Shown piece by piece: positions 3,635 to 55,998 of a DNA stretch of 64,000 nucleotides. The stretch covers positions 2,686,430 to 2,750,429 of the forward strand of contig OZ316893.1 in the NCBI GenBank assembly GCA_973895155.1, read 5' to 3'. The DNA is from Marsupella aquatica. Taxonomy: Eukaryota; Plantae; Marchantiophyta. The position numbers and the translations under genes are program-made. The first letter of the stretch is position 1; every line of letters begins with the position of its first letter. The notes under the pieces are model-generated. The model did no database searches, was not told the DNA's origin, and worked only from the letters and a program-made list of their open reading frames with translations.

Positions 3635-3759
3635 CATGTGTGCCCGGTTTGATGTGACGGGCAACTTGTCGAGTTGCCCGGCACGTAAACTCGGCATTTG
3701 CCGGCCTGAAATGCTCTCATTTGACGCATATTCGTTTTTATTCCCCGACTCGACTCGAA

Positions 3760-4540
3760 CTTCTCCCGGCCCGGCCCGAACTCCTCCCGGCCTCTTCCCG
3801 GACCCAGCCCGGCCCCCCCCCCCCCCCTCTACCTCTCGTCACCCGGCCCCGGCTTTACGCCCCGGCTTTAAATCCCGGCCCGGCCCGGGTGGAGGGGGCC
3901 CGGGTGGGGGGGGAGGAGGCCCGGGTGGGGGGAGGGAGGAGGCCCGGCCCGGGTGGAGGGGGGCCCGGGTGGGGGGGTGAGGAGGCCCGGGTGGGGGAAG
4001 GGAGGAGGCCCGGCCCGGGTGGGGGGGGTGAGGAGGCCCGGGTGGGGGGGTGAGGAGGCCCGGGTGGGGGAAGGGAGGAGGCCCGGCCCGGGTGGAGGGG
4101 TGAGGGGGCCCGGGTGGGGGGGGGAGGAGACCGGGTCGGGAGGAGGACGAGGCCCGGGTGGGGGGAGGGAGGAGGGCCGGCCCAGGGGGAAGGAGGCCCG
4201 GGTGGGGAGGAGGAGGAGGAGGCCCGGGTGGAGGAGGAGGAGGCCCGGGTGGGGGGAGGGAGGAGGCCTGGCCCGGGTGGAGGGGGGCCCGGGGAGGGGG
4301 GGGGAGGAGGCCGGGTGGGGAGGAGGACGAGGCCCGGGTGGGGGAAGGGAGGAGGGCCGGCCCGGGTGGAGGGAGGCCCGGGGGGGAGCAGGCCCGGGTG
4401 GGGGGGGGGAAGGAGGCCCGGCCAGGGTGGAGGGAGGCCCGGGTGGGGGGGAGGAGGGAGGCCCGGCCCGGGTGAAAGGAGGGGTGAGAGGAGGGAGGAG
4501 GGAGGCCCGGCCTGGGTTAAGGGAAGATAAGCCCGGGTTT
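3760..4540. repeat. Left subterminal GC-rich array of the hAT (GGCCCGGGTGG/GGAGGA units)
   Basis: Many GGCCCGG(G) units separated by G-runs; C-rich at ~3760-3880, G-rich after. Confidence 0.9.
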
Positions 4541-5198
4541 TAGAGTTATGGATAAACTCAATTGAGATAAGCCATATCTGCTAATTTGGGGTTGTGACGA
4601 TTTCTCGCCTATCTAGTATTTCAACCCCGCTAAATATAGAATGTTTTTCCATTCTAAATTGTATAAAACTTTGAGTTTTTCTCATTAGACACACTTCACT
4701 AAAAGTAGAGCACTCTATGTAAAGAGATAGAAAAGACTTTTGTGCGCGCGTGCTTGGAGGTTTTACTCGGCATGTGGTAATACGCATAATAACTTTTTTC
4801 TTATCCCTTAACATTTAGTGGTACTTGTGGGTATTGTGAAACAAATGTTGACAATGTTGACATTCATGTACGCATGTTTGGAGCTAAAGCTTGACATGTG
4901 ATATTTTACATGATTATCACTAATTGTCTCATATGTTTTCACAATGTCGGCAAATGCTCATTAAATTATAGATATCACATACGTCGGATAGGAATGTTAA
5001 CAACCAGAAAACAAAAGAGAACCGCTGTGCGCATGTTTGGAGTTTGACTCGACATGTGATATTTCACAGTAGTTTTTTTTTCTCGTTTTATTGTTGTTAC
5101 TTCAAAAGACTAACAAATAATCATTCAATTTTTATTAAGTGACTATGTTTAGCGACGTATAAGAAGACACTTTGTGTGTAAAGTTCTTGTTTTCGATC

Positions 5199-8053
5199 AT
5201 GTCTTCCGAAGAAGATAAGTCGGGCAACTCATCAGCTCATTCTACTCCTGTTAGGCACGGTGGAAATCACAATCGAGATCGTAGTGCAAAATTTTCTCCA
5301 GTGTGGAAATATTTTGAACGATGTGATACGCCATCAGCGTGTAATGATATTAATCGTATATATCGAAGATGCAAATTTTGCAAGAAATATACAACGCATC
5401 ATGCAACACGAGCAAAAGCACATTTGATGGGAAACATACACAAAGGAGATGCGCCACCTTGCACAGGCTTGTATGAAGTTGTTGACTTAGATAACATCAA
5501 TAGAATGTACAATGTCATAAAGGTTGACCCATCCATAAAGTATAAACGAAGTGATGGAAGTCATGTTTTGTTATCCATGAGAGGTCGTAGGTCATATAAC
5601 CCATCCAATTCGCAAGCATCAACTCGAGACTCAAATTTTGTTGACCTCGATGAGGATGGAAATATGAGTCATCGAAGTAGAGCATCAAATTTTGCAAACC
5701 CAATCATGGATGCTTATCAAATTCCAAATAGAGCTCATTTGGATAAGTTGTGGGCCAAAGCTTTTTATTCAAGTGGTATTCCGTTCAATGTGTCGGAGAA
5801 TTCTTTCTTCCGTGAAGCAGTCACAGAAACCTCGAAAGGGATTGTAAATGGATATTCTCTTTTGGGTATGCGAAATTTGAGAATGAAATTATTGGAGGAG
5901 GCTAGAGTTGATCTTACAAAGGACATGACAAAAACAATGAAGGAGGCAAAACCTTTTGGATATTCCCTTTCATCCGATGGATGGGAAAATATCCGAAGGG
6001 AACCTTTGATGAATGTCATGTTGTTGAGTTCAAAAGGAGATTTCTTTTTGGATAGTTGGAACGCTGCACAAGCCGACAAGAAAGATGGGAAGTATCTTGG
6101 TGACATGTGGTTAAAATACATAGATGATATTGGCGCCGATCACATCATACGAATTGTTACTGATGGGGCGCCTGCAAATCGTGTAGCAGGTGAAGAGATA
6201 GTCATGAAAAAATATCCGCATGTGACATGGAGTTGGTGTGCTGCTCACGTTTTTAATTTGTTGCTAGAAGACATGTGTGGCCACAAGAATGTAGTGCTAG
6301 ATGAGCGGAAAAAAAATCCATTCAAAATGATTTTTAAGCACTTGAGATGGATAGTTAAAGCAGTTACATCATCATAAAAGTTGTCTGCAATATTTGTGAG
6401 GAAATCTGGGGACAGGAAGTTGTTAAATCCAAATGCAACGAGATTTGCAACAAATTTTTTAATGGCGCAGAGAGCATTGGAGCTAAGAGGAGCTTTACAA
6501 CAAATGGTCATTGATGACAAGTGGCAATCCTATCGTGATCGCCTGCCAGTTCGACCAAAGTCACAGGGGCATATGACGAGGGGAAAGGCAGACGAACTTA
6601 AATCGTGGATACAGCAAGATACATTTTGGGCTCAAGTAAAATCTACAATTGCTTTTTTCCTGCCGTTGGTGAAGATGTTGCGAGAATTTGATGGAGTTTC
6701 ACCACAGTCTCCTTGGCTATATTGGAGCTTGAAAAAAGGAATAGCTAAACTGGAGGCGAGCATGGAGGGTTGTACATTAGTAACAGATTACTTAAAACCA
6801 AAGATAATGAAAGTGTATATGGATCGACGAAAATCACTTACTACTGATTTCATGTTAGCAGCAGCATATCTGAATCCTCAATTTTTCTTCGATGAAGATG
6901 AAGATGTGGCAGGAGATGCAAAACTGTATAGAGGCTTCAATGATTACGTTCGTAGATATGCAGAACACAAGGTGAAGGCAGGAATCAACCATGATCGAGA
7001 TGTGACGACACTTATTTCTGACATCCAAATGCAGGCATTTGAGGCTCAAAAAAATTGCCAAATTCATCGGTTGCAATTAGAGGAGCACAATCGAATATTG
7101 GGAAATTAAGTCCAGGAGAGTGGTGGCATTTGTATGGAGCTGATTACGCGGAGCTAAGATTGATGGCGAGAAGAATCACGCATCAACAAATCTGTGCATC
7201 TTCATGCGAACGAAATTGGAATTTGTACGACTTCATCCATTCAAAAAGCCGTAATAGGTTGACCAATGATCGGGCAAAAGACTTGGTTTTTGTATTCACA
7301 AATTCGAGGGTGCAAAAAGGGCTCATGAAGGTGAGAAACCCTCATACGTCTATGTATAGACAATATGAAGAAAGAACAGCAACAAATGATGGCCCGAGGC
7401 CTACTTCCATAGAAGGATGTCACACTGAACAACATGGTGTTACATGTGCGGCTCTTGGAGAGGATGATGTGGAGGATTTTGATACAATTGATGACGTAGA
7501 TGAGGCTTTGCAAGGATTATCATTACACAATGATAGTCACATGTTGACTCGTATTCCACCAGATACTGAAATAAGTGATGTCGGAGAATGGGAAGATGAA
7601 ATGGATTTAATGATGTTCCCTACAATCGATGAGTCTCAAATTCAGGATGACGAGGACTACTCATTTGATGCAAACTTTGTAGTGCCTTCCCAACCAAACC
7701 CATCCTTCACATACCCAACATTGAATGTACAAAATGATGTCCAAGCAAGTACTTCGTACTTATTTCAATGACGAGGTGCTGCATCGGAGCTCTGTCCTGA
7801 GAGAACAACACCAACTTTGTTTGCGCAACCTGATGATGCACAGTGGGGACAATATGCTTCTCCAGCACAAAATATGTATGAAAGGCAGAACATGACAAAT
7901 CCATACACATCAAGCATACATGCCCGTGTTGGGGCATTTCAAGAATATCATAGCGCAGATCCAGTCCAATGGATGACAAGACAATTTCAATTTGATCGAC
8001 AGTTGCAAGAAAATGAGAACAATAACACAAGGTACTTTTTGTCACAACCTTGA
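5199..8053 (+). pseudogene. hAT transposase (BED zinc finger, DUF659/RNase H-like DDE core, C-terminal dimerisation domain), disrupted
   Basis: BED finger SPVWKYF..CKFC..H..C; SSDGW and IVTDGA (catalytic D,D); WCAAHVFNL (CxxH); PNATRF; EWW..CASSCERNW..HSKSRNRL (E, dimerisation domain). Split by TAA at 6375-6377, a frameshift near the A-run at ~7048-7054 and TGA at 7769-7771; the same frame then continues to 8053. Confidence 0.92.
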
Positions 8054-8165
8054 CATCTGTTTAGGTATTACATGCTAGTACTATACGACAAACTATGATA
8101 TACTATGCCGGATTGTGCATGTCCTATGCAATAAAATATGCTATACTAAACATTGAGTGTGCAAT

Positions 8166-10133
8166 CTACTCATTTCGGTTTTCATTGTCTTGCGCTTCTG
8201 CTTTCACCTCTGCCAGTTGCTGACAACGACGATGGCGACGAATAGATCGCTGCATGTTTTGCTCATCTGTTGTTGGTCGATTGGTCATGGTATATTCCTT
8301 CCACTGTTGGAATCTACCGCTGAATAACAAATTGTCAAAGTCACCATCTGACAAGTTGTATTCATTAACTGTGAAGTTGTCAATGGGCCTTGAATCGATC
8401 ATTGCCATTGCAATACTCTCTTGAGTCATGTCTTCAGTGTCTTGCTGTGTCTCCATTGGTGGCATTTGTTTCAACAAACCTCGTTGCTCATACTCTCGTT
8501 CATGAAATGGTTTCCGACACCAACATTTTTGGCTCTTCTTCATCCACCGAAATAAGCAAGCATGATGCCATAAGTGACCGCATGTTCCCAAAATGGAAAC
8601 AGATTCAGGACCTCATGGATACAAGCACCAAATACATCTTCCATCCTTTTCTCGAACAAATTGGGCCATACTTTCATCGGTCTTCCACTTGTCAAAAAAT
8701 TTCTCTACATCTTCTGGATCCTCCTCCACATCCGGAAAAAGATGAGATTCTCCCGTAGGATCAATCATTTGCAAGTTCATATAATTGTAGTTCTTGCATC
8801 TTGATTTTTTCTTGTCTGACTGACCATCCACCTCAGCAGTGTTCATTTGCTCGATCTCCTCTTGCAGATTGCTTATGATCACCTCTTGTGATGCAACCTG
8901 ATTCTTCAAATCCTGAATGACTCTATCTGCCTCTTGAACTTGTTTCATTTGACTACATTGACCATCCTTTTGGGCAAGTTGTTTGTTGAGCTTTGCGATC
9001 TCCTCCATCTTGTCGTACAGTTGCACCTTGTATTCCTTCACCTCCGAAGTAGTTGCACTTTGAATGGGAATTTTTTCCATTGCTTTCATCTTCAAAAGAT
9101 TATCTTGCAACTTTGACTTATAGTAGTCAATGCTGCCAGCTTCACAAAGGTCAAGACAAAACTTTGTGCGAAGATTGTTCTCGATCAAATGACCAATCTC
9201 TGTGCTCAAACTCTTGCACACAATCTCCATGCTCAATGATTCTTTCTTTGGATCCAAAACACCAGTGAACTTTCCTGGTAAATTGTTACTTGTAGATGCT
9301 GCAATGTTTGATGTTTTGTCCACATATTTTGGTGCGCTGAAACTTTCAGATTTAGTGAAGAGTCATTCCAGTGCAGTCGGCTTATCTTTCTGATGTGCAT
9401 GAATGTCTTGCACATCATGTATCTTTCTTTTTGACCCTTTGTTGGTTGCTTGACTCGACATATCTTTTGTAGTATTTTTGTTGTTCTTCAAACCTGCAAT
9501 GTCCAGGACAGACTGATGCACAGAGTGAGTCATCTTGCCCTCTTCTGTTTCCCAACGGTAATCCACCTTCCACTTGAGAACAAATTCAGCAATTAGGAGT
9601 CGAAGAAAAGGAGGATAAACCGAGCTTGTTTTGCCTTGCGCTTTCTTTGGAGCATACTCTCGAAATCTTTGCTGCCAATGCTTGCCAATTTTCACATGTG
9701 TTACCTTGGACATTGTGTACTTCTCTTGCATCCAAGACCTTGTGGCCCATAAATTTTCATCATCAAAAATGATTTTCATCCATTTTTGGAACTCCACACG
9801 TGGCATCAATATCTCCAATTCTTTGGCGTTGATGGGCCATTCATTGTGAGGAGGTTTCACATTTGGCATTGTGATATTCCATTCAACATCCTTGGTGTCC
9901 TCATCCATTTTGGTTATGCTTTGCCCTGCATGATTGCTACTCATTCCAATGTCCTCGTCTATGGGTTGAGAATCTTCTTCAGCGTATTGATCCTGAGACC
10001 AAAGGTGTAAATCCTGAGCAGGTTGCAAATATAAATATGAAATCTTTTTAGATTTTTTCTCCTCGTCGGATTCCAAATCCCATTTTCCCATCCTTGCAGA
10101 TTCTACAATAACAAAAACATTTTTAGCATTCAT
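8166..10133 (-). pseudogene. Cargo gene: unknown N-terminal domain + coiled coil + C-terminal RING-H2-like finger (putative E3 ligase), two in-frame stops
   Basis: ORFs 9363-10133, 8613-9323 and 8166-8591 share one frame, separated by single TGA codons (9363-9365, 8613-8615). Read through, the C-terminus is CIWCLYP*GPESVSILGTCGHLWHHACLFRWMKKSQKCWC (C2..CxHxxHxxC..W..CxC). Heptad-like K/Q/E-rich segment upstream. Likely start is the ATG at 10091. Confidence 0.8.
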
Positions 10134-10275
10134 TCACCATACACCCTTCAAGATAAAATTGATAACAAAATACAATGAAGCAAAATGAGTAATACATTTA
10201 ATTCATATGACATGATTAAATAGACAATAGTTCATGACATCTATCATTGTCATTCACGATGAAACTATGAAATCC

Positions 10276-11934
10276 CTAATCTCTTAGATAAGGACTATTG
10301 TGCTGAACTAATCTACAATCTTGGAATGTTCTCATCATTCTCAAACTCCAATGAACACAATCCATTCTTTTCTTGACATCAATGGCCATCATGTCACGTA
10401 TCATAATATCCAATTTAGGGCCATGCTCTCTAGCATTCCAACCCCTATTCAAATATCGTGTCATTGGGGTCATTCCATCCCAATTTTCTGTGAGTAATGT
10501 CTCAAAGACATTGCCCAAAGCATATACGTCAGTTGCTTGACTGTACTCTGCTGGATCGGAACAAACTAGCTCAGGCGCCAATTGTGGATATTGTTTTTGA
10601 TATGCAATTGCTTTCTCTGTAGGGGTGGGCCACATTCAATTTTGTGGTAATGTGCATTGTGACTTGTGTTTGGACAACCCAAAATCACATATTCCTACAT
10701 AAACTCTAATTGCCAAATCATCATCGTGATCAAAGTGAAGAAGGATGTTTCCAAAATGAAGATCACAATGGAAACGGTCATGTGCATGCAAATATTGCAA
10801 GGTCTCCAATAGAGCCATAGCAATCCCCAAACGATGTTCCAAAAAGAGTTTCTTTTCGGATATGAATGTCACATCAACCTCAGAAGTGGATTGTGTCTTC
10901 CCTTTGCTCTTACTCCATTTCCCACACTTATCTATGAAACTTCCCAAGTCACCTCCATTGTAATGGTCATAGATAAGTTTTGGTGGATCTTCGATAGTCA
11001 TTGCCAAGGCCCCAATTATTCCTTTGTGATTCAAACCTCCCATGAGCACTTCTTGTAAAGCATCTGTTCGTCTCTTGTGTCGGTCTCCATCCTTAAATCG
11101 TTTTGCAACCAGTGTTGCATTTCGAGGAATCAATGGGCAATCCAATATATGACATATGAACACATGTCCTTGGATGCTGCTTCCAATGCGATGCAAATTC
11201 GATACTTGCTCCCTCCTCAAGAAATGAATACTCCTGACCATGGGAACAACTCGTGATGGACGCGTTCCTCTATCTGCAACCTCCACGCCAATCTCTCCAA
11301 ACTGCACGACCTTGCTCGCATATTTAACATTACTCTCCGATTTGGCCATTGCTAACTCTTTGCTCCATTTAGCTAGCAAATCTCTTCTATGTGTGTATAG
11401 CCCAGGAACTCCAAGCATGACGGCCCCAGCCTCATCCAAATTGGATTCCAACTTGTCCCAAAGATTCACCGCAAAATTCAACGCCAAATGTTCAACAAAT
11501 CCACCTGGCTTCTCAAAATCACTTATTAAGGAAGCAATTTCATCTCGGGTCATGTCCTCTTCTTTCTCCGCAGTCTCACGCATGCAACGTCCCATGTCAT
11601 TTAAAAGCTTTTTGTAACCCTCTGCTCCATGCATAGCATATTTCCTCTCAAAGCCATCCTGCTCATACTGTGCTGGCAAAGTGTAGGGATATAGAATCTT
11701 TTTCCAAATCGCAACTAACACATGTTGCCTTCTCTCTTTCAATGCAGCACCAATTGCTCCTCCTCTATGTTTCCGTTTCCCTAAGGTTTTACCATGTTTA
11801 CAAATTTCTAAGGTTTTGTGAGCATTCCTTAGAGCATTGAGAGCATGAGGATCTGGTTGGTATCCCTCGTTTAGCATGGTCTTCATTGCCTCAAAAAGTT
11901 TCATATACTCTACACTCACATTTGCAGCGGCCAT
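10276..11934 (-). pseudogene. Cargo gene: protein kinase (ePK fold) with N-terminal extension, one in-frame stop
   Basis: Subdomains in order: IGSSIQGHV (Gly loop), LVAKRF (Lys), QEV (alphaC Glu), YDHYNGGDL, YLHAHDRFHCDLHFGNILL, ICDFGLS, LAPEL, TDVYALG, DVKKR. ORFs 10636-12042 and 10276-10635 are contiguous in frame across TGA 10636-10638. First ATG at 11934. Confidence 0.88.
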
Positions 11935-12647
11935 GTTCTCAAGTAACCACAACAAGTTGTAGGACAAAGAAAAGGCGCTTACGGAGTGTGTTGGCTGCTT
12001 GCCGAGGGTATGGATGATGCAAGTACAATAAAGCTGGATCAAGAATCCTGAAATATCATTTCACACTTTGTGTTGGTACCAATAATACCCAAGCAATGAA
12101 ATTTTAATATTTGTTCAATTTTTTATTCGTTTGTTTAGTACTTTGAAAGTAACAACGATGAGGGGGAAAGACAACTATGTGAAATACCACATGCCAAGCC
12201 GAAACTCCAAGCATGCGCACAAAAGATGTCTTTTTCATCAAGTTGTTACATTCCTATTCCAATCTATGTGAAACCTATAGTTTAGATGTCATTTGTAAAT
12301 GTTGTGAGAATATTTACAAGGAATCGAGATATCCATGCAGAATACCACATGCCGAGCGGAAACTCCAAGCATGCGTACATGAAAATCTCTATCCTAAAAA
12401 ATACTCCACTCAATTCACAAATCACACTAAACTGTTAAGGCGATATTAGGTTCTCTCATACGAAATACCACATGCCAAGCATAAGCTCCAAGCATGCGCA
12501 TACGTGAGAACACTAATATCCCTCCAAATTAAAACTAAATGTTAAAGTCATACATGACAAAGCATAGCAAAAAAAAAGACCAAAAACAATTCAAAAACGA
12601 ATGAACTAAACTCAAAACAAAGCAAAACATAAGCAAAAGCAAGAAAA

Positions 12648-12736
12648 ACTTACCAAAGGTCTCTCCTACAAAACAAGCAAACTTAGTAATGAGAAGTGAC
12701 TAATGAGAGAAAGTGAGGAGACCTCCTCACTTTATA
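12648..12736 (-). promoter_or_regulatory. Putative TATA box, leader exon and splice donor for the cargo transcript
   Basis: On the minus strand: TATAAA (12736-12731), a CT-rich leader, then a perfect GTAAGT donor (12653-12648). Candidate acceptors are TTTCAG at 12048 and TTGTAG at 10103. Confidence 0.5.
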
Positions 12737-12737
12737 G

Positions 12738-13200
12738 GCCCGGTCCCGGTCTGCCCCCCCCCCACCTCGCGAGCCGACCCCGGGTGGCCGAGCCCGATCC
12801 CCCCCGGCGGCTGCCCTCCTCTCGCGTGACCTAACCCTAAAGTCCCCCCCGGCCCGGCCCACCCCCGCCCGACCTCCCGGCCGGGAGGGGGGGCTTTAGG
12901 GTCCGGGCCGCGAGAGGGGGGGGCTTTAGGGTCCGGGCCGGGAGGGGGGCTTTAGGGTCCGGGCCGGGAAAGGGGGGGGGGGGGGCTTTGGGGTCCGGAC
13001 CGGGAGAGGGGGGGGGGCTTTGGGGTCCGGGCCGGGGGAGGTTTAGGGTCCGGGGTCGGGAGGATGAAGGATCCGGGGTCCGGGCCGGGGGGGTTTAGGG
13101 TCCGGGGCCGGGAGGGAAGAGGACCGGGAGTACTCAGGCCGGGACCGGATTTACTCGGGCCGGGACCGGATGATGCCGACCGGGAGAGACCGGGTGTCGG
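12738..13200. repeat. Right subterminal GC-rich array of the hAT (G-run + CTTTAGGGTCCGGGCCGGG units)
   Basis: About 7 units of G(n)CTTT(A/G)GGGTCCGGGCCG at 12885-13110, plus CCGG repeats toward the TIR. Confidence 0.9.
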
Positions 13201-13262
13201 CTTGCCGGTTGACGGCCTTAAAACGGCCTATTTGCCGGGCAAGTCCAAACCGGGCATGTGTG

Positions 13263-14150: not shown

Positions 14151-14477
14151 TGTAGCCAATCTTTCAATCGTTCACCAAGGGTGACATTTGCCACATAGGT
14201 GAAAACGGAAAAAACCTTGAAAATCCTTTAGCCCCGATCTAATCATTCTAAATTTAAGTAACCAATATTCTTAGCATCTTCTTCTTCACCCGTTCACCAA
14301 GGGTATCATTTGGTGAAAAGAATAAACCCTGAAATCCAATAGGCATAATCTTACGTTTATAGTCAAATCTAGGGAGATCTAACCCTCCATTCAAATGAGA
14401 TAACTAAGTAATATTATTAGAATCTTCTCCTTCACCCCTTCTGCCAAGGTTACCTTCTCCACCGAAAAGAATCACCC

Positions 14478-14893
14478 TCGGGGCATCACCTTGAAAATTA
14501 CACTAATCAAGGATCGACCACGGGGCATCACCTTGAAAATTACACTAATCAAGGATGACCCTCGGGTAACCATGAAAATTACGCTAATCAGGATCACCTT
14601 CGGGGCATCACCTAAAATAAAATTACGCTAATCAGGATCACCCCCGGGGCATCACCTAGAAAACAATTACGCTAATCAGGATCACCCCCGGGGCATCTTG
14701 AAAATTACGCTAATCAGGATCACCTTGGGAACACCTTGAAAATTACGCTAATCAGAATCACCTTCGGAACACCTTGAAAATTACGCTAATCAGGATCACC
14801 TTTGGAACACCTTGAAAATTTACGCTAATCAGGATCACCTTCGGAACACCTTGAAAATTACGCTAATCAGGATCACCCTCGGGGTATCACCTC
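14478..14893. repeat. Minisatellite, ~38-44 bp unit, ~10 copies
   Basis: Unit approximately GGG(G)CATCACCTTGAAAATTACGCTAATCAGGATCACCTTC repeated head-to-tail. Confidence 0.92.
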
Positions 14894-15557
14894 ATCAGCT
14901 CAGTGAGAGAGAGAGACAGAGAGCGAGAGATCGTCAGCAGACAGAAATAGCGAGACTGTCGGCACGGACACACACGCACACATGTATCTTCCATCGAAAG
15001 AACGGAGCTCGCGCATTTCTTGGACCTTTCTGAGACGGCCCACCATTTCAGACTCTCTCAGTGTCGAATTACGTGACGTTTTGCGGGCCCTTCCCTTGTC
15101 TCCGGTCCAGCTTCCCTTGTTCCCAAAGTCTGGGAACAGTGGAGAGAACTTGAGGTCCAACGCGCTATGGGCGTGTATGCTTCGAAAGTCGTGGCCTTGA
15201 GTCCTGAGATTCTACTTGGTAGCATTATCAGGAACCTTTCAGCGTGAGACCAGTGGCGTTCGCTGAGCTCGGGTGCAAGTTCAGAAGATCACGGTCTACA
15301 GTTTTGAGGTTGTGTGACTATAAAGCCGCGTTTCTACGAGAAAGGACCTCATTCACTTTACAACTTTACTATACTGCAAAAGCTCGAAATCCATCTTTTT
15401 ATCATCCGAGTCTGCAAAGACGCTTAGATCGTAGTGTTCGTGAACGGCAGAACTTTGCAAAACTTGACCGGTTCTGTGTTTTGCCGAAGATCACAATCAC
15501 ATCATTTGTTGCAGGGAAGACTGCTTGAGAACACTAGTGCAGCGTGAGCGAGTATTG

Positions 15558-16307
15558 ATGGACACCCGGGAGGGTGCTGCTCAGGTGAAGCAACAGCATC
15601 ATCAAGTCCTCGTGTACACAGAGACTCCGAAGCCAATCGTTGTGGGTGCGGATGATTTCCAGAACTTGGTTCAAAGTCTTACTGGTGGGAAGCGAAAGAG
15701 GAAGTCGGTCACCTTCGCCTTAGTAAATGCAGGGGAAGCAGCAGAAGCCCAGCAGGAGTATTTGCCGCAGGCACCACCACCAGCCAGGGTGCAGCAACAG
15801 CCATTGCTGGATTACTTGGACAGACTGGACAAGGAATGCCCTCCACGATCCACTGGGGCCCAGCGAAACCGAGGTTTCTTCGCCACAGCAGGACTAGTTA
15901 AAGGAGTGAGGAGGGAAGAAGGTTTGCCGCAATTTGACACGTTTGATTCTCCTTTGGGCTCTTCAGCCCGCAATTTTGAGCCCAAAGATGCAGAAATGGC
16001 TGAGAAAGCATCGACTACGGTTTGCAGTGTCAAGGTCTTGACTCCGATTAGTTCCCTCCAAGGTTGCAAGCGCGTGTGTTCTGAATGGGTCCCCGAATGG
16101 ACGGGCTGCCTTTCACCACGCTCCGGTCAGGTAGTCGAGGAAGCAAAGAGGACTGCGGCCCTTTGGAATCGATCCGGGTTAGGGCCTTGGAATATAAATC
16201 TAGAGAACATTGCAGAAAGTGATGGCTGCGGCCGGGATGACGATTGTGGCTATCCAGTGGACATCCTCTACTACAAGGGAGAAATCACTATGGTTGAGCA
16301 GACTTAG
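15558..16307 (+). CDS. VQ-motif-containing protein
   Basis: ADDFQNLVQSLTG matches the plant VQ motif FxxhVQxhTG, followed by a basic KRKRK NLS-like patch. TATA-like CTATAAAG at ~15319. The 3' end is uncertain because of the overlapping ORF 16210-16761. Confidence 0.75.
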   Translation: MDTREGAAQVKQQHHQVLVYTETPKPIVVGADDFQNLVQSLTGGKRKRKSVTFALVNAGEAAEAQQEYLPQAPPPARVQQQPLLDYLDRLDKECPPRSTGAQRNRGFFATAGLVKGVRREEGLPQFDTFDSPLGSSARNFEPKDAEMAEKASTTVCSVKVLTPISSLQGCKRVCSEWVPEWTGCLSPRSGQVVEEAKRTAALWNRSGLGPWNINLENIAESDGCGRDDDCGYPVDILYYKGEITMVEQT

Positions 16308-20800: not shown

Positions 20801-21806
20801 GATATTGCAAGACATGACGATGCAACCTTTTGATGCTGGGAATGAACAGGAACAGATAGTCCAAGGATTGTGTCTACTAGGAACTGTAACCCCAGCTTTA
20901 CACGCTGCTACTGGGTTTGCATGGTGGCCAAATTTGCTACAGAACTGACCCATGTGTCGTAAGAAATGGTTCGCATGGCAGCATGACAAACATTACCAAT
21001 TCGCTCAGTACAAGGTGTTGCTGAAATCAAATAAGACACCCCTCGTACTCACAGAAGGCAAAGAAGAGCTTAATTGTAGGATTCAAAAGAACAGAATCGA
21101 AGAAATTATCCAGTTTCGTTGCAAGAAAAAAGAGAGTTGCACACGATGATGAATGGAAGGAACGCTAGTCGGTTGATTCTCTAGCCGTTTCAGCTCCTTG
21201 GATGAGAGCAATAAGGAAACTGACGTCTGGTATCAAGATTCTCACTAAAGTCAACTACACAGAGGGAATCGCACATGCCGACCGCCCATTCTCACAATAA
21301 TTAATCATACTCTCCAGGCAAGGAGGAAACCATGGTGCCAGTGAATAAATATTTCAAGCGAACAGAGACTGGCGAGGAAAGAGAGCAAAGAACTGTTGAT
21401 TTGAATAAGAGCACAGTACTTCACCGTCTTGCCGTAAAGCACAGTAACTCTTTTGTCTTAATGTAAACGTACAAAATCCGTTATAAAAAATTGCACCTCT
21501 TGCACGTTGTCCCTGCTGCCGGGCCTGGAACAGATACTCTTCCTAAACTAAGATGGTGTGTTAACTCACCATGTCTACCTCCAATGTTCGTTCGCAAGTA
21601 CTCCAAAAGTTGACAGCACACTAAGATCCTAAGATCCCCTCAGGCGGAGGAAATGCTGCATACCAAGGCTTAATTTTGTATTCTTTACGAATACTGACTC
21701 AAATGAACTCTAATTTACTACTTTCGGGTTTAGAAAGGCACGCTCCACGAGTTCTGTTATTCCGGGCACTGTTTCGTATTAATGACTATGTGACATTGGT
21801 AATGAT

Positions 21807-25141
<3,335 letters not shown>

Positions 25142-34100: not shown

Positions 34101-36401
34101 GCAATTAGTCAAAGTTGCCGTGCTCGTTCCTCAAAAGACCCTCCTGGCCAATGACATAAATTTGTCAAAGTCCCCGTGCTTCCCTCAGTTGGTATACGGT
34201 AAGGAGCTTGTGGTGGGTCTGGCATCAATAGGCCGTAGCGTGCGGCTGGAAGGGTGGACAGTCATGTTCTTAGCCACGCACGTTGCAAACTTTAGGGGCG
34301 AGACGAAACCGTTTTTTTCGGGCCCGTTGGCGAGGTCCAAAAACGAGTCCAAAACCTGACCGTGAGATGCATGCTGTGCTCACTGTAGCCCTTCGCTGAG
34401 AAGCTTCATTGAGCACTAGCCTGGCCCTTCAGTGCTCGTGCTCAGTCCCTCACAAAACTAAAGGTGACATGCTCACAGTGACCTTCCAAAGCAGCAGAAC
34501 GAGTTTCACCTCTAGTCTCATATGTGTAAAATGCCACTCAGGTTTCGATACCACTTAGCGTCATCCAGCAGATACTTCCTTTTGTATTCCCGAATTTTTC
34601 CAGTTGCGATGTAGTTTCGCCCTCAGCTCAAAGTAGTCAATGCTCAGTACGTTACCTTGACAATGGAGGACCTACCATTTACACGAACCTAGTTGAAATC
34701 ATTGGTTCATTTGCGAATTAAAGTTCAATAAAATTAGTGGTTCGATAAAATTAGTGAATCATTCTAATCTCAGATTTACATTCATCTCCTTTCCTTTCAT
34801 CAAATAGCAGTGTAGAACAGATCATTACAATTATGTTGCAGTCATTAATGATCCCTGAGAAAGTAAGATCGAACAGACGCCGGCTCAGTATAATTCATGC
34901 TAGCTGCAACCCCTCCTTCGGACAACAGCATTAGTTGAGAAATGACAGTCAGTTGAGTACTCATGAAAAAATCACAGGGATGGGATTACGCGATTTCTTA
35001 ACCAATTGAAGCTCTGGCACCTTGTACTCATCACGAATTTAATTGGGGAACTAACGTGAGACAGTGCATGTCGCCTGATTTGAACAAATCTTCTAACGAA
35101 TAAACTGGCGTCGTAATCACCAATTAATTTGTCATTTATTGCGAAGAAATTCCCAACGTTGCTGCAATCTAGCAGTCTCAAACGAGCGTTGCTTACACGT
35201 CCTGTGTCTACTGCAGTCGTCTAAGTTTCTGCCACAAAGCATTGAATTTAATAATGGAGTGATTTTTCTAATTGCTTCAGCTCGAAGCCATTCTCGTCGT
35301 TCCAGAGGTGTCAGTCTCGTCGTTCCAGAGGTGTCATGAACACTACAGAGTAGCTGTAGACTGTCAGCACGAATGATCAATTTGAGTAGTCTGCTGAGAC
35401 CAGAGCTGACAGTACTACCAGCTACAATCCAATAAATGGAGTCCGTGAGCTCCAAGGTCTGTTTCATTGGCAAAAATTAGTCAAATTCCACCTCCTCCCA
35501 ATCCTTCGCCACTTGTCTAAGTCGTTCTTTCCGAGCACAAGTCCATGAGTCATAGGGCATTGGCCATTGGGTCACTTTAGCATAATTATAATATCTTGAG
35601 TGGTGTGATGACGCGACACGCCTTTAACTAGAGTAATATATCGTGCGCGTTTTAAACAATGCATTCTTCCAATTCTTCCAATTCTTCCAATTGCGAGAAG
35701 CTGTACGGAAGATTTCAGAAAGCGGAAACTTTCTCACAGTCTCACGTGGCCATGGTAAGCGTTTTGTTCTTGATGTCTACTTCAAGCCGATCATGGTTCT
35801 CGAGAAGAACAAATAGTTCAGTAAGTTGCCAATTGCGGTTCTCGACAATTTCTTTTGTTCATTAGGTTGCCAATCGTGGTTCTCGACAATTTGCTTTGTT
35901 CAGTAGGTTGCCAATCGCGGTTCTCGAGAAGAGAAACAGAGGGGTGTGGCACTTGGCCAGCGCCGTGGAAAGGAAGTAATCTTCTGAGGAAAAAGTCTTC
36001 ACAAAGACGACATAACTAAAGGCTTCAGGTCCCCCTCGACTGTTGAATGGTTCTTTTCCAAGTTTCGGCAGAGTAACAATAGTGATGAGAAGTGCGGATG
36101 GAAGGCTGGCGGAGGCATCATTGCCTTCCGTAGCTTTTGATATGACTTTCATGTTTTTTCACTCCGTGAGAGAAAGCGGAAGTGTGCACTGCTGTCTGAG
36201 TGTGCTTCAATGAGGCTATCCCAAGAGCTAGCATAATTTAGCCCGGTGGAGCTCATGACACCATAGGATAGAATTGAACGGTTGCGAGAATGGAGAATTA
36301 GAACACAGCGGAGGCAAACCCCTGTCAGGTTCTTTCTCAAGTTCGAAATACCAGCGAAGGAGTTTTATGTGCCCTTGCCTCTCAATCTGATTGAGTTGGC
36401 T

Positions 36402-37865
36402 ATGGGCTACAAAGAATCAATAATCGTTGTTGTTGGAACCGAGACAGACTGCAAAACTCGTGTGGCAGACGCACTTGCAGAGGGTCGCAATGCCTCTGAG
36501 ATTGAGATTTCTGAGGAGGGGGTCCGATTATTTAGGAAGAAATCGTCCCTTACCCCGTCAGTTATCGACACCGTAGCCTTGGCCACCTACGATGGTTGGA
36601 ACATCGTGGATACTTCCAGGGCATGGATTGCAAGGAATTCACTACGAAGATTGCTTGGAAAACCGATATTTGTGCTCTGTGTCGCCACATCGTCAGGTCC
36701 ACACGACGTCATCTATAAGGACGCTGATTTGGTTAAGAATCAATTCAGTTGGTTGAATCTGCTGGCTGCAATTTTCCCGGAGGACCAACGAGCGATAATG
36801 ATTATAGTGAAGTTACAGGGCACTAGTGATAGCGGGGCCACGGAGTTGGGCATGAGGCGTGTCCTCCAACGCGACGGATTCAACACCGAGAACGCAGTGT
36901 TCTCGACGTTGAGGGGAAGAGATCTAAATAGCCCGATCAACACAGCACTTGAACATAGTATCATTCATCACCGTTGGCCCAGAAGGTCCATGGCACCCTT
37001 CTGTCTCCGAGAGGTGACAAAGGACTCCAGTTATGCCCAAAAACTTGGGCCATGGGGTCCTGAAAGGGTGATTTTACTCGGGAGGACGGGCTGTGGCAAA
37101 TCAACTCTCGCTCAAATGCTCACATTGGGAAAGCTGGACCCTACTTCCGAACTGTTCGCGTCGAGCTCAGGTATCAGAGGAAAAACGAAGGAAGTCGCTC
37201 ATGGGGAGGGTAGAGGGTGGTACGTCGTGGACACGCCGGGGTTTGCAGAACCGGCCGATGGAGACCATACCATCAGCACTGAAGCCGCGGAAGCCAAGAT
37301 TAAGAAATACGTCCAACTAATCGAGGGAACTTACACACATTTCATACACGTGGTGATGAAGGACCGCATTGACTGGATGGAAGAGAGACTGTGGCAGTTC
37401 TTCTTACGACTCTTCGGCGAAGACATTAAAGAAAACTTCTCCATAGTGATTTCCGACGCGGAACAGAAATGGGTGGAGGACAACATAGAGACTTTGCAAC
37501 AGAGTTTCAAAGGCGCCGAGAGCTTTCTCAGTGCCGAGTTCCCGAAGTCACGCGAAAACGACGAAGAGTGGGAGGCAGAGTCTCAGGAGGTGCGCACAAA
37601 ATCTCTGAAGGACTTAGAGGACGGGCTTACGGTTCTCTTCAGAAGCCAAACGTACTGCGACTTCGGCCAATTCTCCAAGATGAACATCAAACGGGAGAGG
37701 TCAGGGCTAGATATCGCAACTCGCGACACTAGGAGTTGGAGAAAGAAGGCAACCATCTCCGTGAGAGCAGCAGCAATGGAGACATATGCTGACTTTCGCA
37801 GGTTGGCCTTGATGTTGGCCCCGGACGACAAGGGTGTCGTACTGGACTTGAATGTTAATATTTAG
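36402..37865 (+). CDS. Intronless AIG1/Toc34-like (TRAFAC) P-loop GTPase, 487 aa
   Basis: G1 ILLGRTGCGKST, G2 GKTKEV, G3 WYVVDTPGF, followed by HFIHVV and FLRLFGEDIKENFSIVIS as in AIG1/IAN proteins; uninterrupted ORF, first ATG at 36402. Confidence 0.85.
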   Translation: MGYKESIIVVVGTETDCKTRVADALAEGRNASEIEISEEGVRLFRKKSSLTPSVIDTVALATYDGWNIVDTSRAWIARNSLRRLLGKPIFVLCVATSSGPHDVIYKDADLVKNQFSWLNLLAAIFPEDQRAIMIIVKLQGTSDSGATELGMRRVLQRDGFNTENAVFSTLRGRDLNSPINTALEHSIIHHRWPRRSMAPFCLREVTKDSSYAQKLGPWGPERVILLGRTGCGKSTLAQMLTLGKLDPTSELFASSSGIRGKTKEVAHGEGRGWYVVDTPGFAEPADGDHTISTEAAEAKIKKYVQLIEGTYTHFIHVVMKDRIDWMEERLWQFFLRLFGEDIKENFSIVISDAEQKWVEDNIETLQQSFKGAESFLSAEFPKSRENDEEWEAESQEVRTKSLKDLEDGLTVLFRSQTYCDFGQFSKMNIKRERSGLDIATRDTRSWRKKATISVRAAAMETYADFRRLALMLAPDDKGVVLDLNVNI

Positions 37866-41840: not shown

Positions 41841-43529
41841 TATAGTCAGGTAACCCAGTGCCCACCAACTCACTAGTCAATGTTCACCAGGAACGCAATC
41901 ACCAGCTCACCCTTGAGTTGACCCATCTATGAGCTCTCAACGTGATTATAACTAGACATCAAGCTATTGCTAATCCAATTTAATTGTTGTTGCAAAAAAG
42001 TTGGATGTGCAGTGCTCAGGAGAATCACTACAATCAGTGTTGTTGTTAGCAGAACAGACACTAATAACTAGGCCAGCAATCAGTGTTGTTGTTAGCAGAA
42101 TAGACACTAATAACTAGGCCAGCAATCATGTCTCCTTATATTTTCTTATGCACTCTCTTTTGCACTTTGCCAACATGCCCAAGCATATTTCTTCCTCTGC
42201 CAAGTTCCTATGTAGCACATGAGGAGATAAAATAATCAGAAGACAGCATCTGGCCTATTGGACAGGATGACATGAGATATGGAGGGAATGGGTGGCAGAG
42301 ATAGAGGCAATGACACTGTCAAAGTCACAAAACTACTTTGTTACAACATCAAAAATTCAAGAATTAAAGAGACACTCTCAATTTTTCCAGGATATCAAGA
42401 ATTCCAAAAATAATCGAAGACATCCAATCTGTGATACGAATTTTCTTCTTGTGATGGGGAGAGTTTTTCTAGGGAAAGATTTTACTATCCTCGAATTGAT
42501 GAAGATCATGTACAATGCGCATAATGAGTAAGTTGGTTTTCCTACACCCTTTTGTGGATGGAGTGACTGTATGTTTGTACCATTAGTGCCAAAAGCCCTG
42601 ACAATGTTCTTTGATATCAAATTGAAGGCAGAGAACCCTAGTGTATGCTATTTCTTTGCCTTCACTCCTCGTAGCAATAGCCAACCTGCAAAAGCCATTA
42701 ATTAGCGTGAAGACACATGAGAGAATTCATGGTCATATATGATAGGCCGGAAGGTGCCTTTTGAAGGGTTCTACAAACATAGATTTTGATTCTACGCGTG
42801 CAAGGCTTAAACAAATTTTAAATTATTACCTGGGAAAAACATAAAAACCAAATTACAATTTGACACATATAGGGTTTAAACAAAATTGTAACCTGGGCAC
42901 AACAAAAAAACCAAATTACAATTTTATAGCAAAAATTTTATATACACATTTTCAAATTGGCTAAAATATGTACTAGCAAGGTATTGGAATAATGCACACC
43001 TATATTTCAGTGGCATATAGAAGTCAGCTCCTAGGGGGGTCACTTCCACGGAAGTGGCATATCAGGTGCGACAAAGTATAGGCCCATTTAAATGGGTGTG
43101 GCCTCAAGGGCCTCAATCCAAGGGGTGTCCCATATCACGCACGAAGTTTGGGGGAAATAAACACCCTAAAACTTAAGTCAATAAAGTTTTTTGAGGAACT
43201 TTGTTACCTTTAACTCGATAGAATATTCCCAAATTTGATTTCCAAAAACCCTATGATTGCCCACACAGGCATGACTTTATGGTAGTTCACTTAAATATAG
43301 ACTGATAGGTCTTGGGTTCAACTATTGTGGCTGACTCTTCCCTTTCTATGGGGTTTCATAGATTTCCTCCTTAGGGGTTTCACTTCCATAAAAATGACAC
43401 ATCACGTGCGATGAAGGATACAGTCATTTTATTGGTTCTAAGGGAAGACTTAAGAATTTATGCAGAAGAACAATAGGGTCTTTTAAATTCTATTTTTGTT
43501 GGGTATTTACTCTTACGTCTAGGTTAGGT

Positions 43530-43660
43530 ATGACGTGGTTGGTACAACAACGTGGGTTGGTACAACTACGTGGTTAGGTACAACTACGTGATTAGGTACA
43601 ACTAGGTGGTTAGGTACAACTACGTGATTAGGTACAACTATGTGGTTAGGTACAACTAAG
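43530..43660. repeat. 18-bp tandem array inside the LTR (also at ~49604-49734)
   Basis: About 7 copies of GGTTAGGTACAACTACGT and variants. Confidence 0.92.
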
Positions 43661-45071
43661 TTGCACACTATATCATAAGAGGCATGTGTGCTTGGAGAGG
43701 TAGAACCAAGGCTCATTGTTATGGAGCCACTTGAGAGATAGGGAGAGCTTACACTGTGGAGACTCGGTATAGCCGACGGGCTTAGAGTTCAGTAAAGCTC
43801 TCTTGTGTGTTCCCGTGGACGTAGCCTCAAGGAGGTGAACCACGTATCTCTTGTGTCGACTATTGTGCGTTGGATGGTTCATGGGCTTGCCGTTGCGATC
43901 GTCGTCTATGCTCAACAATTGGTATCAGAGCATGCTTGGGAGGTGACGTATGTTCGTGACGGGATTTCATGACGGTTTTTCCAGCGTTGAGTGTTGGTGG
44001 ATTTTCCAGAGTTCCATCGCATGGAACTTGGAGTTTATGGGCTCAACGGATAGATCAGGGCAAGAGCTTTCTAACGGTGTGAAGAAATCGTTGAACGGAG
44101 CTCGTGGTGCAGAGAGATCTAAGTTTTTGTCGTTCTGGATTTTGTGAAGAAAGTTGGCAATCGACTCGGAGGGAGAAGCGTCAAGTGTTTTGACTCAACG
44201 GAGAGATTGAGGCAAGACGATTGTTTTTGAGTCCGGGATTGGCTCTTTGATGCAAAGAGGAAGGCTAAGCAAAATCAATTACCTTGTTGGACTTGGTGAC
44301 GGCACCAAGTGCAATTGATCAACATTCGTTGTTGACAAGGTACCATTTATTTCTCTTTGAAAAACTGATTCGAAATTGGCTATGGCAATTGAAAGAAATC
44401 TGTCATCTTTACCAATTTTTTTCTCCCTCGTTCTTTCCTCGTTTTGGGTGCTTCTTATATCGATCTTCATCGCCTCGGAGTCTAGTTTCCAAATCTGAAA
44501 TCGGATCTTGATTTCGTCAAAACCCGAGTGAGATATCTTGCGTTTGGTGTCGAGGGGTACATTCTGCCGTGTGTATTTTCTGCGCGCGCGACCAGATTTC
44601 GACGACGAAGGGTGGTAGGGGGTTTTGGGGGTTCGAGGACACATGTCAGCCCCTCGATTGTTCTTCCAAAATTCCCACAGGGCCTGTACAAGGGTCATAG
44701 AATATTCCAAAAAACCAGAGAGCTATTTTTTGACCGTCCGACAAAGATTTCATCCGCCGAACGGTAACTTTTTTGGTTATTTTTCGGCGAGGTCATAGCC
44801 ATTGAAGTTGGCAATGCAGCGCACCAATCACATCGCAATTCCGACAACGGGTTGTACTTGGTATTTCGGTTATTCCCTGAGGTGGTCAAAACGGGGGAGT
44901 TTCCCAAGGTTTTACCCACCTCGACCAAAATTTGAATAACTTTTCCGTCAAATTTCGATTTTGATTTTGGTTTTCAGTATTGGACTCCTAGCTTTGTGGG
45001 CTACGCGGCGGTGTTGAGTTTCGAGTTTTTTGAGAAGTTGTGAAAAACAACATTTTTTGTGACTTTCTCAT

Positions 45072-46106
45072 ATGAGTGATTCGGAGGAGTTTTTCGAAGA
45101 CGTGGAACTTGAAGCACGAGGATCACCGCGGAGGTTTCAGGGGCAGAGAGAGGAGCAGGAGGAAGAGCACGTGACACCGATACCATCACCGGTGCGGCGT
45201 GTGGTGGAGGAAGCAGTACTACTACCGGAGCTCACGGTAAAGAAGAAGATGGGGACTTTCAAGCTTGGGGGACCCAAGTATGAAGTGACAAAGTATGATG
45301 GGCGCTCTGACTACTTGCTATGGGAGAAGCAGGTGAAGGGAGTGCTTTATGCGTCAGGGATGGGCCAACTGCTGAGCCCTCGTGAAGACGATGTTGATGA
45401 GAAACAATGGGACCGCATGCAGGAGCAGGGAGTGTGGTGTGTTACACTCTATCTCATGCCTCCCATCATCAAGCAGTTAGGTGCACATAAGGATTGCATG
45501 TCCTTGTTTGCGGAATTGCAGAGCAAGTATCACCGCAAGGAGTTGTCGAACCGGCTCTACACTTCCTACAAACTGATGAGTTTCAGGATGAAGGAATCTG
45601 GTACGAAGTTGCAAGACCATGTGGATGCTTTCAACGACATGGTCGTTGACTTGGAAAACCTTGGGGAGACTTTGAATGATGAGACGAAGGCTCTGCAGCT
45701 TCTTAGTTCATTGCCTCCATCTTACCAGTCCCTATCACGAGTGTTGTTGCATCGTGATAGGGATACCATTTCATACAATGACGTGGTAAGTTCTCTGCTT
45801 AGTGATGATCTTCAGCAGAAGATGCACATCACGTCACAGCCTTCATCATCTGGTGTTGCCCTCAATGTTAACCGTGGGAGGAGTATGCAGCGACCAACTG
45901 GGGACCGTAGAACCCAGTTTAGATCTAAATCCAGATCTAAGTCCAAGGGTAAATCCCCTCAGAGGAGGCAGGTGACATGTTGGAAGTGCAACCAAGTTGG
46001 ACACTTCAAGCGAGACTGTAAGGGAAAGGCAGCGGAAACTTCATCGGCAAATGTGGCTAGGGCTGATGGAGAAGCTGATTTACTCAATGATGAGTATGTT
46101 TTATGA
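45072..46106 (+). CDS. gag: Copia Gag with CCHC zinc knuckle
   Basis: KYDGRSDYLLWEKQVK, LLSSLPPSY, CWKCNQVGHFKRDC. Confidence 0.92.
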   Translation: MSDSEEFFEDVELEARGSPRRFQGQREEQEEEHVTPIPSPVRRVVEEAVLLPELTVKKKMGTFKLGGPKYEVTKYDGRSDYLLWEKQVKGVLYASGMGQLLSPREDDVDEKQWDRMQEQGVWCVTLYLMPPIIKQLGAHKDCMSLFAELQSKYHRKELSNRLYTSYKLMSFRMKESGTKLQDHVDAFNDMVVDLENLGETLNDETKALQLLSSLPPSYQSLSRVLLHRDRDTISYNDVVSSLLSDDLQQKMHITSQPSSSGVALNVNRGRSMQRPTGDRRTQFRSKSRSKSKGKSPQRRQVTCWKCNQVGHFKRDCKGKAAETSSANVARADGEADLLNDEYVL

Positions 46107-49100: not shown

Positions 49101-49379
49101 CTTATCACTGAAATGGGATTGCCACAGGGGAATGTGAAGCTCCATTGTGATAGTCAAAGTGCGCTCCACCTTGCTGTGAACCAGGTGATGGACAGCAGAG
49201 TGAAGCACATTGACGTCAGGTACCATTTTATCAGGCAGGCTGTGTCTGATAATTTATTTGAGCTAGTCAAGATTGATGGTAAACTCAACCCGGCTGACGC
49301 ATTTACCAAAGTGATTCCTTTGGAGAGTTTCTCTAGACACCGTGACGTATTGCAGGTTTTGCAATTGCATCACAAGTAG
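46107..49379 (+). pseudogene. pol: Copia Pol (PR-IN-RT-RNase H) with in-frame stops
   Basis: WILDCACSFH (PR); WHSRLGH..CEHC, HSDVWGP, FIDDYSR, RSDNGGEY (IN); [28 protein letters not shown] (RT); GYVDSD, TEAEY, ADAFTK (RH). Stops at 46818-20, 47034-36 and 48309-11, all in the gag frame. Confidence 0.93.
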
Positions 49380-55149: not shown

Positions 55150-55998
55150 CTAGAAGTGCACGCTGCATGAGTGCAAAACGTTGGATAGTTGCTAGGTGCT
55201 GTCTTTTCGTTGTTGGCACTTTCTGTAACGGCTGCAATGAACGACGGATATGCAGTGCGCTGAGTGCAAACCCTGGATATTTGCAAGGTGCTGTCCTTTC
55301 CCCTTTTTGCACTTTTTGTAAGGGCTGCAATGAGCGACAAATATTAAGTGTGCGCACTGCATGAGTGCAAACCCTGGATATTTGCAAGGTGCAGGCTTTC
55401 CCTTTTTTGCACTTTTTGTAAGGGGCTGCAATATATGAGCCACAAATATTAAGTGCGCACACTGCATGAGTGAAAACCCTGGATATTTGCACGGTGCATC
55501 CTTTCCCTTTTTTGCACTTTTTGTAAGGGGCTGCAATATATGAGCCACAAATATTAAGTGCGCACACTGCATGAGTGAAAACCCTGGATATTTGCACCGT
55601 GCATCCTTTCCCTTTTTTGCACTTTTTGTAAGGGCTGCAATATATGAGCCACAAATATTAAGTGCGCACACTGCATGAGTGCAAACCCTGGATATTTGCA
55701 CGGTGCATCCTTTCCCTTTTTTGCACTTTTTGTAAGGGGCTGCAATGAGCCACAAATATTAAGTGCGCACACTGCATGCGTGCAAACCCTGGATATTTGC
55801 AAGGTGCGTCCTTTCCCTTTTTTGCACTTTTTGTAAGGGCTGCAATGAGCGACAAATATTAAGTGTGCACACTGCATGAGTGCAAACCCTGGATATTTGC
55901 AAGGTGCTGTCCTTTCCCTTTTTTGCACTTTCTGTAAGGGCTGCAACGTGTCACGAATATGTAAGTGCAAAACTGTATAAGGGTGTATTCACAGTAGT
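55150..55998. repeat. ~100-105 bp tandem array (~8 copies), ending near a possible CACTA terminus
   Basis: Unit GTGCGCACACTGCATGAGTGCAAACCCTGGATATTTGCA..CCTTTCCCTTTTTTGCACTTTTTGTAAGGGCTGCAA..CACAAATATTAA; followed by CACAGTAGTG (reverse complement CACTACTGTG) at 55989-55998. Confidence 0.9.

Follow-up and report, generated by a model that had tools for sequence, protein, structure and literature searches.

A protein kinase gene with an HCDLHFGN catalytic loop inside a hAT transposon of the liverwort Marsupella aquatica

Results

A hAT element with two additional genes

The window, the whole 64,000-nucleotide stretch of Marsupella aquatica DNA that was analysed, contains a hAT element of 9,612 bp (3643-13254), and a kinase gene sits inside it. 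The element is flanked by an 8-bp target-site duplication, CATGTGTG, found in identical form at 3635-3642, where it abuts the inverted repeat, and at 13255-13262. The terminal inverted repeats (3643-3665 on the plus strand and 13232-13254 on the minus strand) begin CCCGGTTTG and are perfect over 9 bp and imperfect over about 23 bp. Further inward, GC-rich subterminal repeat arrays occupy 3762-4524 (plus strand), a CCCGG/CCGGG-rich tract delimited by repeat search, and 12740-13170 (minus strand). The density of CCCGG/CCGGG reached 76/kb in 3643-4540 and 56/kb in 12740-13254, against 0.75/kb outside the element.

Three genes lie between these arrays. The transposase gene (5199-7771, plus strand) carries a disabling stop (6375-6377) as well as a frameshift near 7054-7109; its product matched the Pfam families DUF659 (E=5e-28) and Dimer_Tnp_hAT (E=3e-8) above cut-off and zf-BED weakly (E=0.096), and the motifs SDGW, TDG, CAAH and SSCERNW could be read in it. 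A second cargo ORF (8166-10133, minus strand, with an approximate start codon) is positioned between the transposase and the kinase, on the same strand as the kinase, and contains stops at 9363-9365 and 8613-8615. Its C-terminal finger (about 8517-8636) is RING-like, with RING Pfam matches (E=4e-5 to 2e-4) that fell under the curated cut-offs. This ORF has about 640 codons and a helical or coiled-coil-like middle, and contigs from all four of the public runs described below cover it. The kinase gene (10276-11934, minus strand), defined by ORF translation and homologue alignment, has 552 codons and is dead in this copy.

The 8-bp duplication around terminal inverted repeats, a transposase with DUF659 and dimerisation domains, and dispersed related copies identify the element as a hAT. 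With the hAT superfamily of the Ac/Tam3 kind it has in common the 8-bp duplication, short inverted repeats, subterminal repeats and the DUF659/dimerisation transposase; it differs in adding two genes, for the kinase and the RING-like protein, and in an inverted repeat that begins CCCGG, where hAT repeats usually start with CA or TA. Structurally this is a complete cut-and-paste transposon. Because transposase, RING ORF and kinase are all broken, this copy is dead.

A repeat of about 50 nt, located by repeat search and nhmmer, occurs three times upstream of the kinase (12170-12221, 12328-12379 and 12451-12502, spanning 12170-12502, minus strand). A profile made from these kinase-side copies found three copies upstream of the transposase (4744-4791, 4867-4917 and 5026-5068, spanning 4744-5068, plus strand) at E-values of 2e-9, 3e-9 and 4e-7 (nhmmer), the best match in five shuffles being E=2. 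The repeat is also present three times before a kinase homologue (47% protein identity) on the metagenome contig L002, at E-values of 2e-4, 6e-4 and 0.03. Since it precedes both kinase and transposase, this repeat is the best sign that the kinase is part of the element's own control rather than a chance pick-up.

Outside the element, the window looks like a land-plant chromosome in its sequence content (Hsp70, AIG1 GTPase, copia). An intron-split Hsp70 gene at about 21800-24400 (minus strand) reads as the plastid type. In a long open frame at 36267-37865 (plus strand), the second half holds an AIG1-type GTPase domain and the first half has no assignment, and a copia LTR retrotransposon at about 43496-49994 has LTRs that are 99.5% identical over 425 nt and a polyprotein with stops. 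The ORF at 15468-16307 (plus strand) had no Pfam match at E<=0.01 and contains FQNLVQSLTG, which we take to be a plant VQ motif. Tandem arrays at 14450-14893, 55261-55946 and 59683-60940 have periods of about 38, 105 and 366 nt.

Divergent copies of the element in public runs

Evidence for further copies came from contigs of four public runs (X1, X2, X3 and X5, under three organism labels) that were matched to the element. In every run, divergent contigs of several identity classes covered 29 or 30 of the 30 bins into which the element was divided. The matching contigs numbered 744-2508 per run over four identity classes, contig depth being distinct from copy number. Multiple divergent copies of the element exist. 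A 3273-nt contig of run X5, which carries the third organism label, spans the kinase; its match ends at 13255, one base past the predicted end of the element, and the 32 letters beyond are unmatched. X5 contigs at a depth of 2 also tile the stretch 7298-13255, in which the gene order is unchanged. Contigs of X1 and X3 bridge 3701-11036 and 7876-11204, which suggests internally deleted derivatives that would retain part of the kinase.

The kinase reading frame, its lesions and its conservation

Translated from 11934 to 10276 on the minus strand, the kinase gene gives 552 codons with one internal TGA (10636-10638, codon 433) and a final TAG. The catalytic residues and motifs that an earlier sequence-only reading had listed for it are all present: GSSIQG at residues 251-256, VAK with K278, LQEVL with E295, HCDLHFGN at 389-396, DFG at 417-419, APE at 453-455 and DVY at 469-471. 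These comprise the beta3 Lys, alphaC Glu, HxDxxxxN, DFG, APE and alphaF Asp of an ePK. Two Pfam families matched the translation with scores that passed their curated cut-offs, PK_Tyr_Ser-Thr at E=5e-13 and Pkinase at E=1.3e-8. Homologues of 540-553 residues aligned over their whole length and finish with the C-terminal motif of the window kinase, whose reading frame therefore requires no intron. A full-length AlphaFold2 model was poor (mean pLDDT 57, 9 sequences); structure searches with it returned kinases, and these confirm the predicted kinase fold and nothing beyond.

The premature TGA falls in the activation segment, between DFG and APE, and would delete most of the C-lobe. The majority of contig depth at this position read CGA, an Arg codon, in each of the four runs (1130/1478 in X1, 1737/2918 in X2, 6102/7017 in X3 and 2/2 in X5), and the TGA is therefore a C-to-T change of this copy or of a minority of copies. 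The Gly-rich loop (11167-11184, minus strand) does read GSSIQG, as had been pointed out, but it is no oddity of the kinase as such, since Ser253 is specific to this copy: the third loop position is Gly in 122 of the 123 family rows having a residue there, and contig depth at position 11178 carries the letter giving Gly in all four runs. Judged by these alignments, GSSIQG is a second lesion, reflecting decay of this copy and not a family feature. This copy of the kinase is a pseudogene, and its value is only that of a pointer to the family.

Region 10530-10850 held 92 differences; variation among copies was assessed on the 40 of these with the best support, each change being scored alone. Among these best 40 variants, 26 fell at third codon positions (p=4e-5) and 22 were synonymous, compared with an expected fraction of 0.205 (p=2e-6). 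Against the L002 homologue, the window kinase gave pS=0.82, a saturated value, and pN=0.34; the corresponding pS and pN were 0.88 and 0.43 for the N-terminal part and 0.78 and 0.27 for the kinase domain. The kinase gene is thus conserved at the protein level. Purifying selection shows that it has a function and leaves the beneficiary undefined; a host-beneficial role or a role in drive would fit equally.

A kinase family with its own catalytic loop

The family set consisted of 185 rows scoring at least 100 bits on a kinase-domain profile built here. The close family showed 45-79% identity in single-sequence searches and full-length conservation at 45-67%, and its sole named members are proteins of Calypogeia fissa (74-79% identity). 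A wider group with H[NC]D[LI][HS]xxN loops, mostly with DWG, includes proteins of Riccia fluitans and Adiantum nelumboides, as well as about 100 more metagenome proteins that are unnamed or generically labelled. Two wider-family proteins on 2-3 kb MAG contigs are labelled 'Bacilli bacterium', a label that is likely the result of binning contamination. Intact homologues were widespread in the sequence collections searched.

Across the 185 family rows, the beta3 Lys was retained in 139/139, the alphaC Glu in 141/149, the catalytic Asp in 177/183, the Asn in 182/183, the DxG Asp in 171/176 and the APE Glu in 148/159. Canonical Ser/Thr ePKs have the Lys of HRDLKxxN and a GT before APE. Neither feature was found in the family: Lys two places past the catalytic Asp occurred in 0/183 rows, as did the RD Arg, and G[TS] preceded APE in 0/160. 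The residue two places past the Asp was Ser in 105, His in 55 and Thr in 12 of the 183 rows. In the close family, the loop read H[CA]D[LMF]HxxN in 24 of 24. The non-RD loop HCDLHFGN (10747-10770, minus strand), with His where Lys is usual, had been singled out by the sequence-only reading; it is real, its lack of the Lys is family-wide, and HxDLHxxN is a true family signature.

Tyrosine kinases have HRDLAARN or HRDLRAAN as their catalytic loop, and no DLAARN occurred in the close family. Searched against PDB, the family profile returned receptor tyrosine kinase domains in 60 of the 60 matches listed (best E=8e-27). These matches, PK_Tyr_Ser-Thr as the top-scoring Pfam family for the window kinase, and the missing G[TS] before APE are points of likeness to the TK/TKL groups (FGFR2, KIT, ROR1, B-Raf; plant RLK/Pelle); unlike them, the family is without the RD Arg and forms its own clade, and about half of its HNDLS/DWG proteins score Pkinase only. 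The PDB profile scores suggest a TK/TKL ancestry and leave specificity unfixed.

A comparable loop is found in haspin, which phosphorylates histone H3 Thr3. According to the available text of PMC11320660, its loop is Asp649-x-His651-x-Gly653-Asn654, and the His651Ala change is reported to matter for catalysis. The same D-x-H-x-G-N spacing is seen in the window kinase as D391-x-H393-x-G395-N396. Haspin has DYT (PMC11320660, available text), whereas the window kinase has DFG and APE; the latter gave no Haspin Pfam match at E<=0.01, and no haspin was among the PDB matches listed. The likeness is a convergent motif and not a sign of membership. As haspin is active with this loop spacing, HCDLHFGN implies neither inactivity nor tyrosine specificity. 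By analogy, the loop His may be a working substitute for the usual Lys, in which case it would take over the phosphate-contacting role of that Lys after the catalytic Asp, as in haspin.

A predicted helical N-terminal domain

AlphaFold2 modelling of residues 1-235 (36 sequences) predicted an all-helical domain over residues 6-198 with a mean pLDDT of 75. This N-terminal domain (about residues 1-200; 11335-11934, minus strand), which has a basic patch at residues 48-57, is conserved across the close family. Residues 1-235 had no Pfam match better than E=0.08. In the Foldseek search that had been proposed for the region, the model found no match at E<=0.001 in PDB or BFVD; there was no usable Atlas feature match and no named structure match, the best VIA Z being 5.8 (rmsd 3.3, 83 aligned). 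For a predicted structure, such an absence means no match and is not proof of a new fold. The motif K[KR]x[KR] occurred within the first 200 residues in 13 of the 16 family proteins checked, a count made without a shuffled control, and the window copy's basic patch, KRKHR, misses the strict NLS pattern. Comparison of the close family's N-terminal region with that of the HNDLS/DWG group gave an hhalign probability of 12% (E=0.003, 61 columns), and one-way HMM matches between them were no better than reversed controls; homology of the two regions is a weak lead.

Placement of the family

Trees were built with FastTree on 90 rows and with IQ-TREE (LG+C20) on 40 rows and 271 columns. The outgroups were matches of our own searches, most of them labelled by motif, and long branches may attract in these trees. 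Three HRDLHS-type rows were presumed to be fungal-type from a motif. The IQ-TREE run left out seven long-branch HxDL rows, and row P0184 was dropped, the motif pattern being absent.

Both programs held the close family together. IQ-TREE placed it in a 17-row HxDL[HS] clade with support of 100/97, separate from kinases of receptor-like, TKL, bacterial and other types. The four RLK rows, of which two were named and two were labelled by motif, grouped as a clade of their own (100/98), and the close family and these RLKs as one clade were rejected (AU p=0.0003); nesting within an RLK family, named beforehand as the finding that would count against a separate lineage, was thus not seen. In the best tree the RLKs were sister of the whole family clade, with support of only 67/82. 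Five TKL-type rows fell outside the family clade in a tree without named plant Raf-like kinases. A single clade of the close family and the three HRDLHS-type kinases was rejected (AU p=0.0005), and bacterial kinases as sister of the whole family were marginally rejected (AU p=0.04). A sister relation between the whole family and the HRDLHS-type kinases, represented by three motif-labelled rows, was not rejected (AU p=0.40). In the FastTree tree, the seven long-branch HxDL rows, including a repeat kinase of the prawn Palaemon carinicauda, fell between the family and canonical kinases. That protein (P0047, XP_068229785.1) has four repeated kinase domains with HNDLYLNN loops and matched the window kinase at E=3e-14.

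Scans with exact short patterns confirmed no family member in GTDB, and none among the matches listed for IMG/VR; one IMG/VR match looks, on reading its sequence, like an unrelated eIF2-alpha-type kinase. Three proposals of the sequence-only reading are borne out by these data, namely that the kinase is transposon cargo (it lies between hAT termini), that it belongs to a lineage of its own (the 17-row clade) and that its N-terminal region of about 230 residues is unassigned.

Other genomic contexts and earlier descriptions

Genomic context covered the window locus and two metagenome contigs, of which L001 was too short, and the transposon linkage of the wider family appears to rest on the window locus. 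L002 had no hAT transposase and has a DUF6729 ORF downstream of the kinase. Directly after the kinase homologue, L002 2527-5518 (plus strand) holds this DUF6729 ORF and then an unassigned ORF with DDE-like motifs; the second ORF had no Pfam, NCBIfam or PDB match, and a literature search on DUF6729 found no paper. As a guess, L002 could be a second transposon type carrying the kinase family.

Literature searches, with Repbase and subscription journals outside their scope, found no description of the family. By term look-up, 'kinase' is absent from PMC6839031, PMC7466625 and PMC13547354. It is absent too from the main text of PMC12973397, which surveyed 1,007 plant genomes and in whose available text the term Jungermanniopsida is likewise missing. 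As far as these searches reach, the kinase family appears to be undescribed. Transposon accessory enzymes are already known; an ePK-type kinase family in plant hATs is, within that scope, a new form of them.

Discussion

On balance, we favour the reading that intact copies make an active, probably nuclear accessory kinase. Its target would be either the transposase or a host protein of chromatin or silencing, and the phosphorylation would help the element to spread. Included in this reading, which we hold with moderate confidence, is the claim that the kinase gene is a constant component of a family of hAT transposons. Mechanistically, the 50-nt repeat would drive co-expression of the kinase with the transposase, the basic patch may mediate nuclear import, and the helical N-terminal domain may bind the substrate; phosphorylation of one of the targets just named would then promote the spread of the element.

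A bolder form of this proposal, which we put forward only tentatively, is that the kinase belongs to an ancient lineage residing on DNA transposons of liverworts, mosses and ferns, which would take its own promoter cassette from one element type to another and counter host silencing by phosphorylating chromatin or silencing proteins. For this it would rely on a His loop resembling that of haspin and on a helical domain of a new kind for targeting. If true, this would make a transposon-encoded kinase an anti-silencing weapon in plants.

Selection on the protein is also consistent with other beneficiaries. The kinase might be cargo that benefits the host plant, in defence or stress signalling, with the element kept for that reason. 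Non-RD kinases are common in plant immune signalling, conservation and the synonymous excess fit any selected function, and intact homologues are widespread. We consider host benefit unlikely, however, in view of the upstream repeat common to kinase and transposase and the joint decay of all three genes of this copy; moreover, the family is not nested in RLKs, and no signal peptide, transmembrane or ligand-binding domain was apparent in the kinase.

Less probable still is meiotic drive, in which kinase and RING protein would act as a poison-antidote or spore-killer module favouring the element in a plant whose dominant phase is haploid. Neither a nuclease nor any other killing domain turned up, and the L002 kinase is followed by a DUF6729 ORF instead of a RING gene, which argues against such a pairing even though the two cargo genes here sit one after the other on the same strand and encode an enzyme and what may be a ubiquitin ligase. 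The parallel would be the fungal Spok spore killers, which have a kinase domain and are carried on a giant transposon.

Passive capture of a host kinase (Pack-type), carried without function, is largely refuted already, and we give it very little credence. This copy is indeed a pseudogene, and active plant TIR elements seldom carry a kinase domain (supplementary Table S6 of the 1,007-genome survey, PMC12973397, lists Pkinase as an accessory domain for 1/337 hAT, 2/775 CACTA and 4/1,846 MULE clusters). Against capture stand the synonymous excess among copies (in the best 40 of 92 variants), full-length conservation at 45-67% identity with catalytic residues intact, and the lack of a conventional host parent, the best matches outside the family being weak and local.

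As to origin, the least credible account is that the gene arrived recently and horizontally, whether from arbuscular mycorrhizal fungi, from bacteria or from a giant virus; a horizontally acquired lineage was one of two options raised by the sequence-only reading, which linked HxDLHxGN loops with the first of these groups. HRDLH/HCDLH loops do occur in tandem TKL-type matches, one Atlas structure neighbour, at a TM of only 0.48, is a cluster made up mostly of Mucoromycota, and a deep sister relation to HRDLHS kinases was not rejected. Yet the clade uniting these kinases with the close family was rejected, two of them align by BLAST at 25-34% identity over no more than 123 residues, the pattern scans confirmed no member in GTDB or among the IMG/VR matches listed, and the deeply diverged subgroups that include proteins of liverworts and ferns suggest that the family has long resided in plants.

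The accessory kinase that we favour would act in a setting with some precedent. To our knowledge, it is with accessory enzymes that transposons counter host silencing, and plants have yielded few examples. Alpha-kinases, which enter the comparison below, form a separate class of kinases. TET/JBP genes are carried by fungal DNA transposons belonging to many superfamilies, and fungal IS3EU families also have an alpha-kinase gene opposite the transposase (PMC12730594, available text). In these elements, as proposed here, an enzyme gene is a stable part of a DNA transposon, and the alpha-kinase lies opposite the transposase like the window kinase; in contrast to IS3EU, with its fungal hosts and alpha-kinase, the window kinase is ePK-type, with DFG/DWG and APE, and is found in plants. 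Accessory proteins with a shown effect aiding their element include VANC of VANDAL (PMC5735166) and MURB of MuDR (PMC12973397), and AACRNL, a modifying enzyme beside hAT elements, has a shown effect on a host silencing protein (PMC12957317), each according to the available text of its source. All three are transposon-linked accessory proteins like the one proposed here; none as described there is a protein kinase, and the role of the window kinase is a predicted one.

With a family of well over 100 divergent members, most of which are unnamed or called hypothetical in sequence collections, and which selection maintains within a hAT element, phosphorylation would join the accessory toolkit of transposons. 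The family also suggests that a whole kinase group may be overlooked or misfiled when the kinomes of seedless plants are surveyed.
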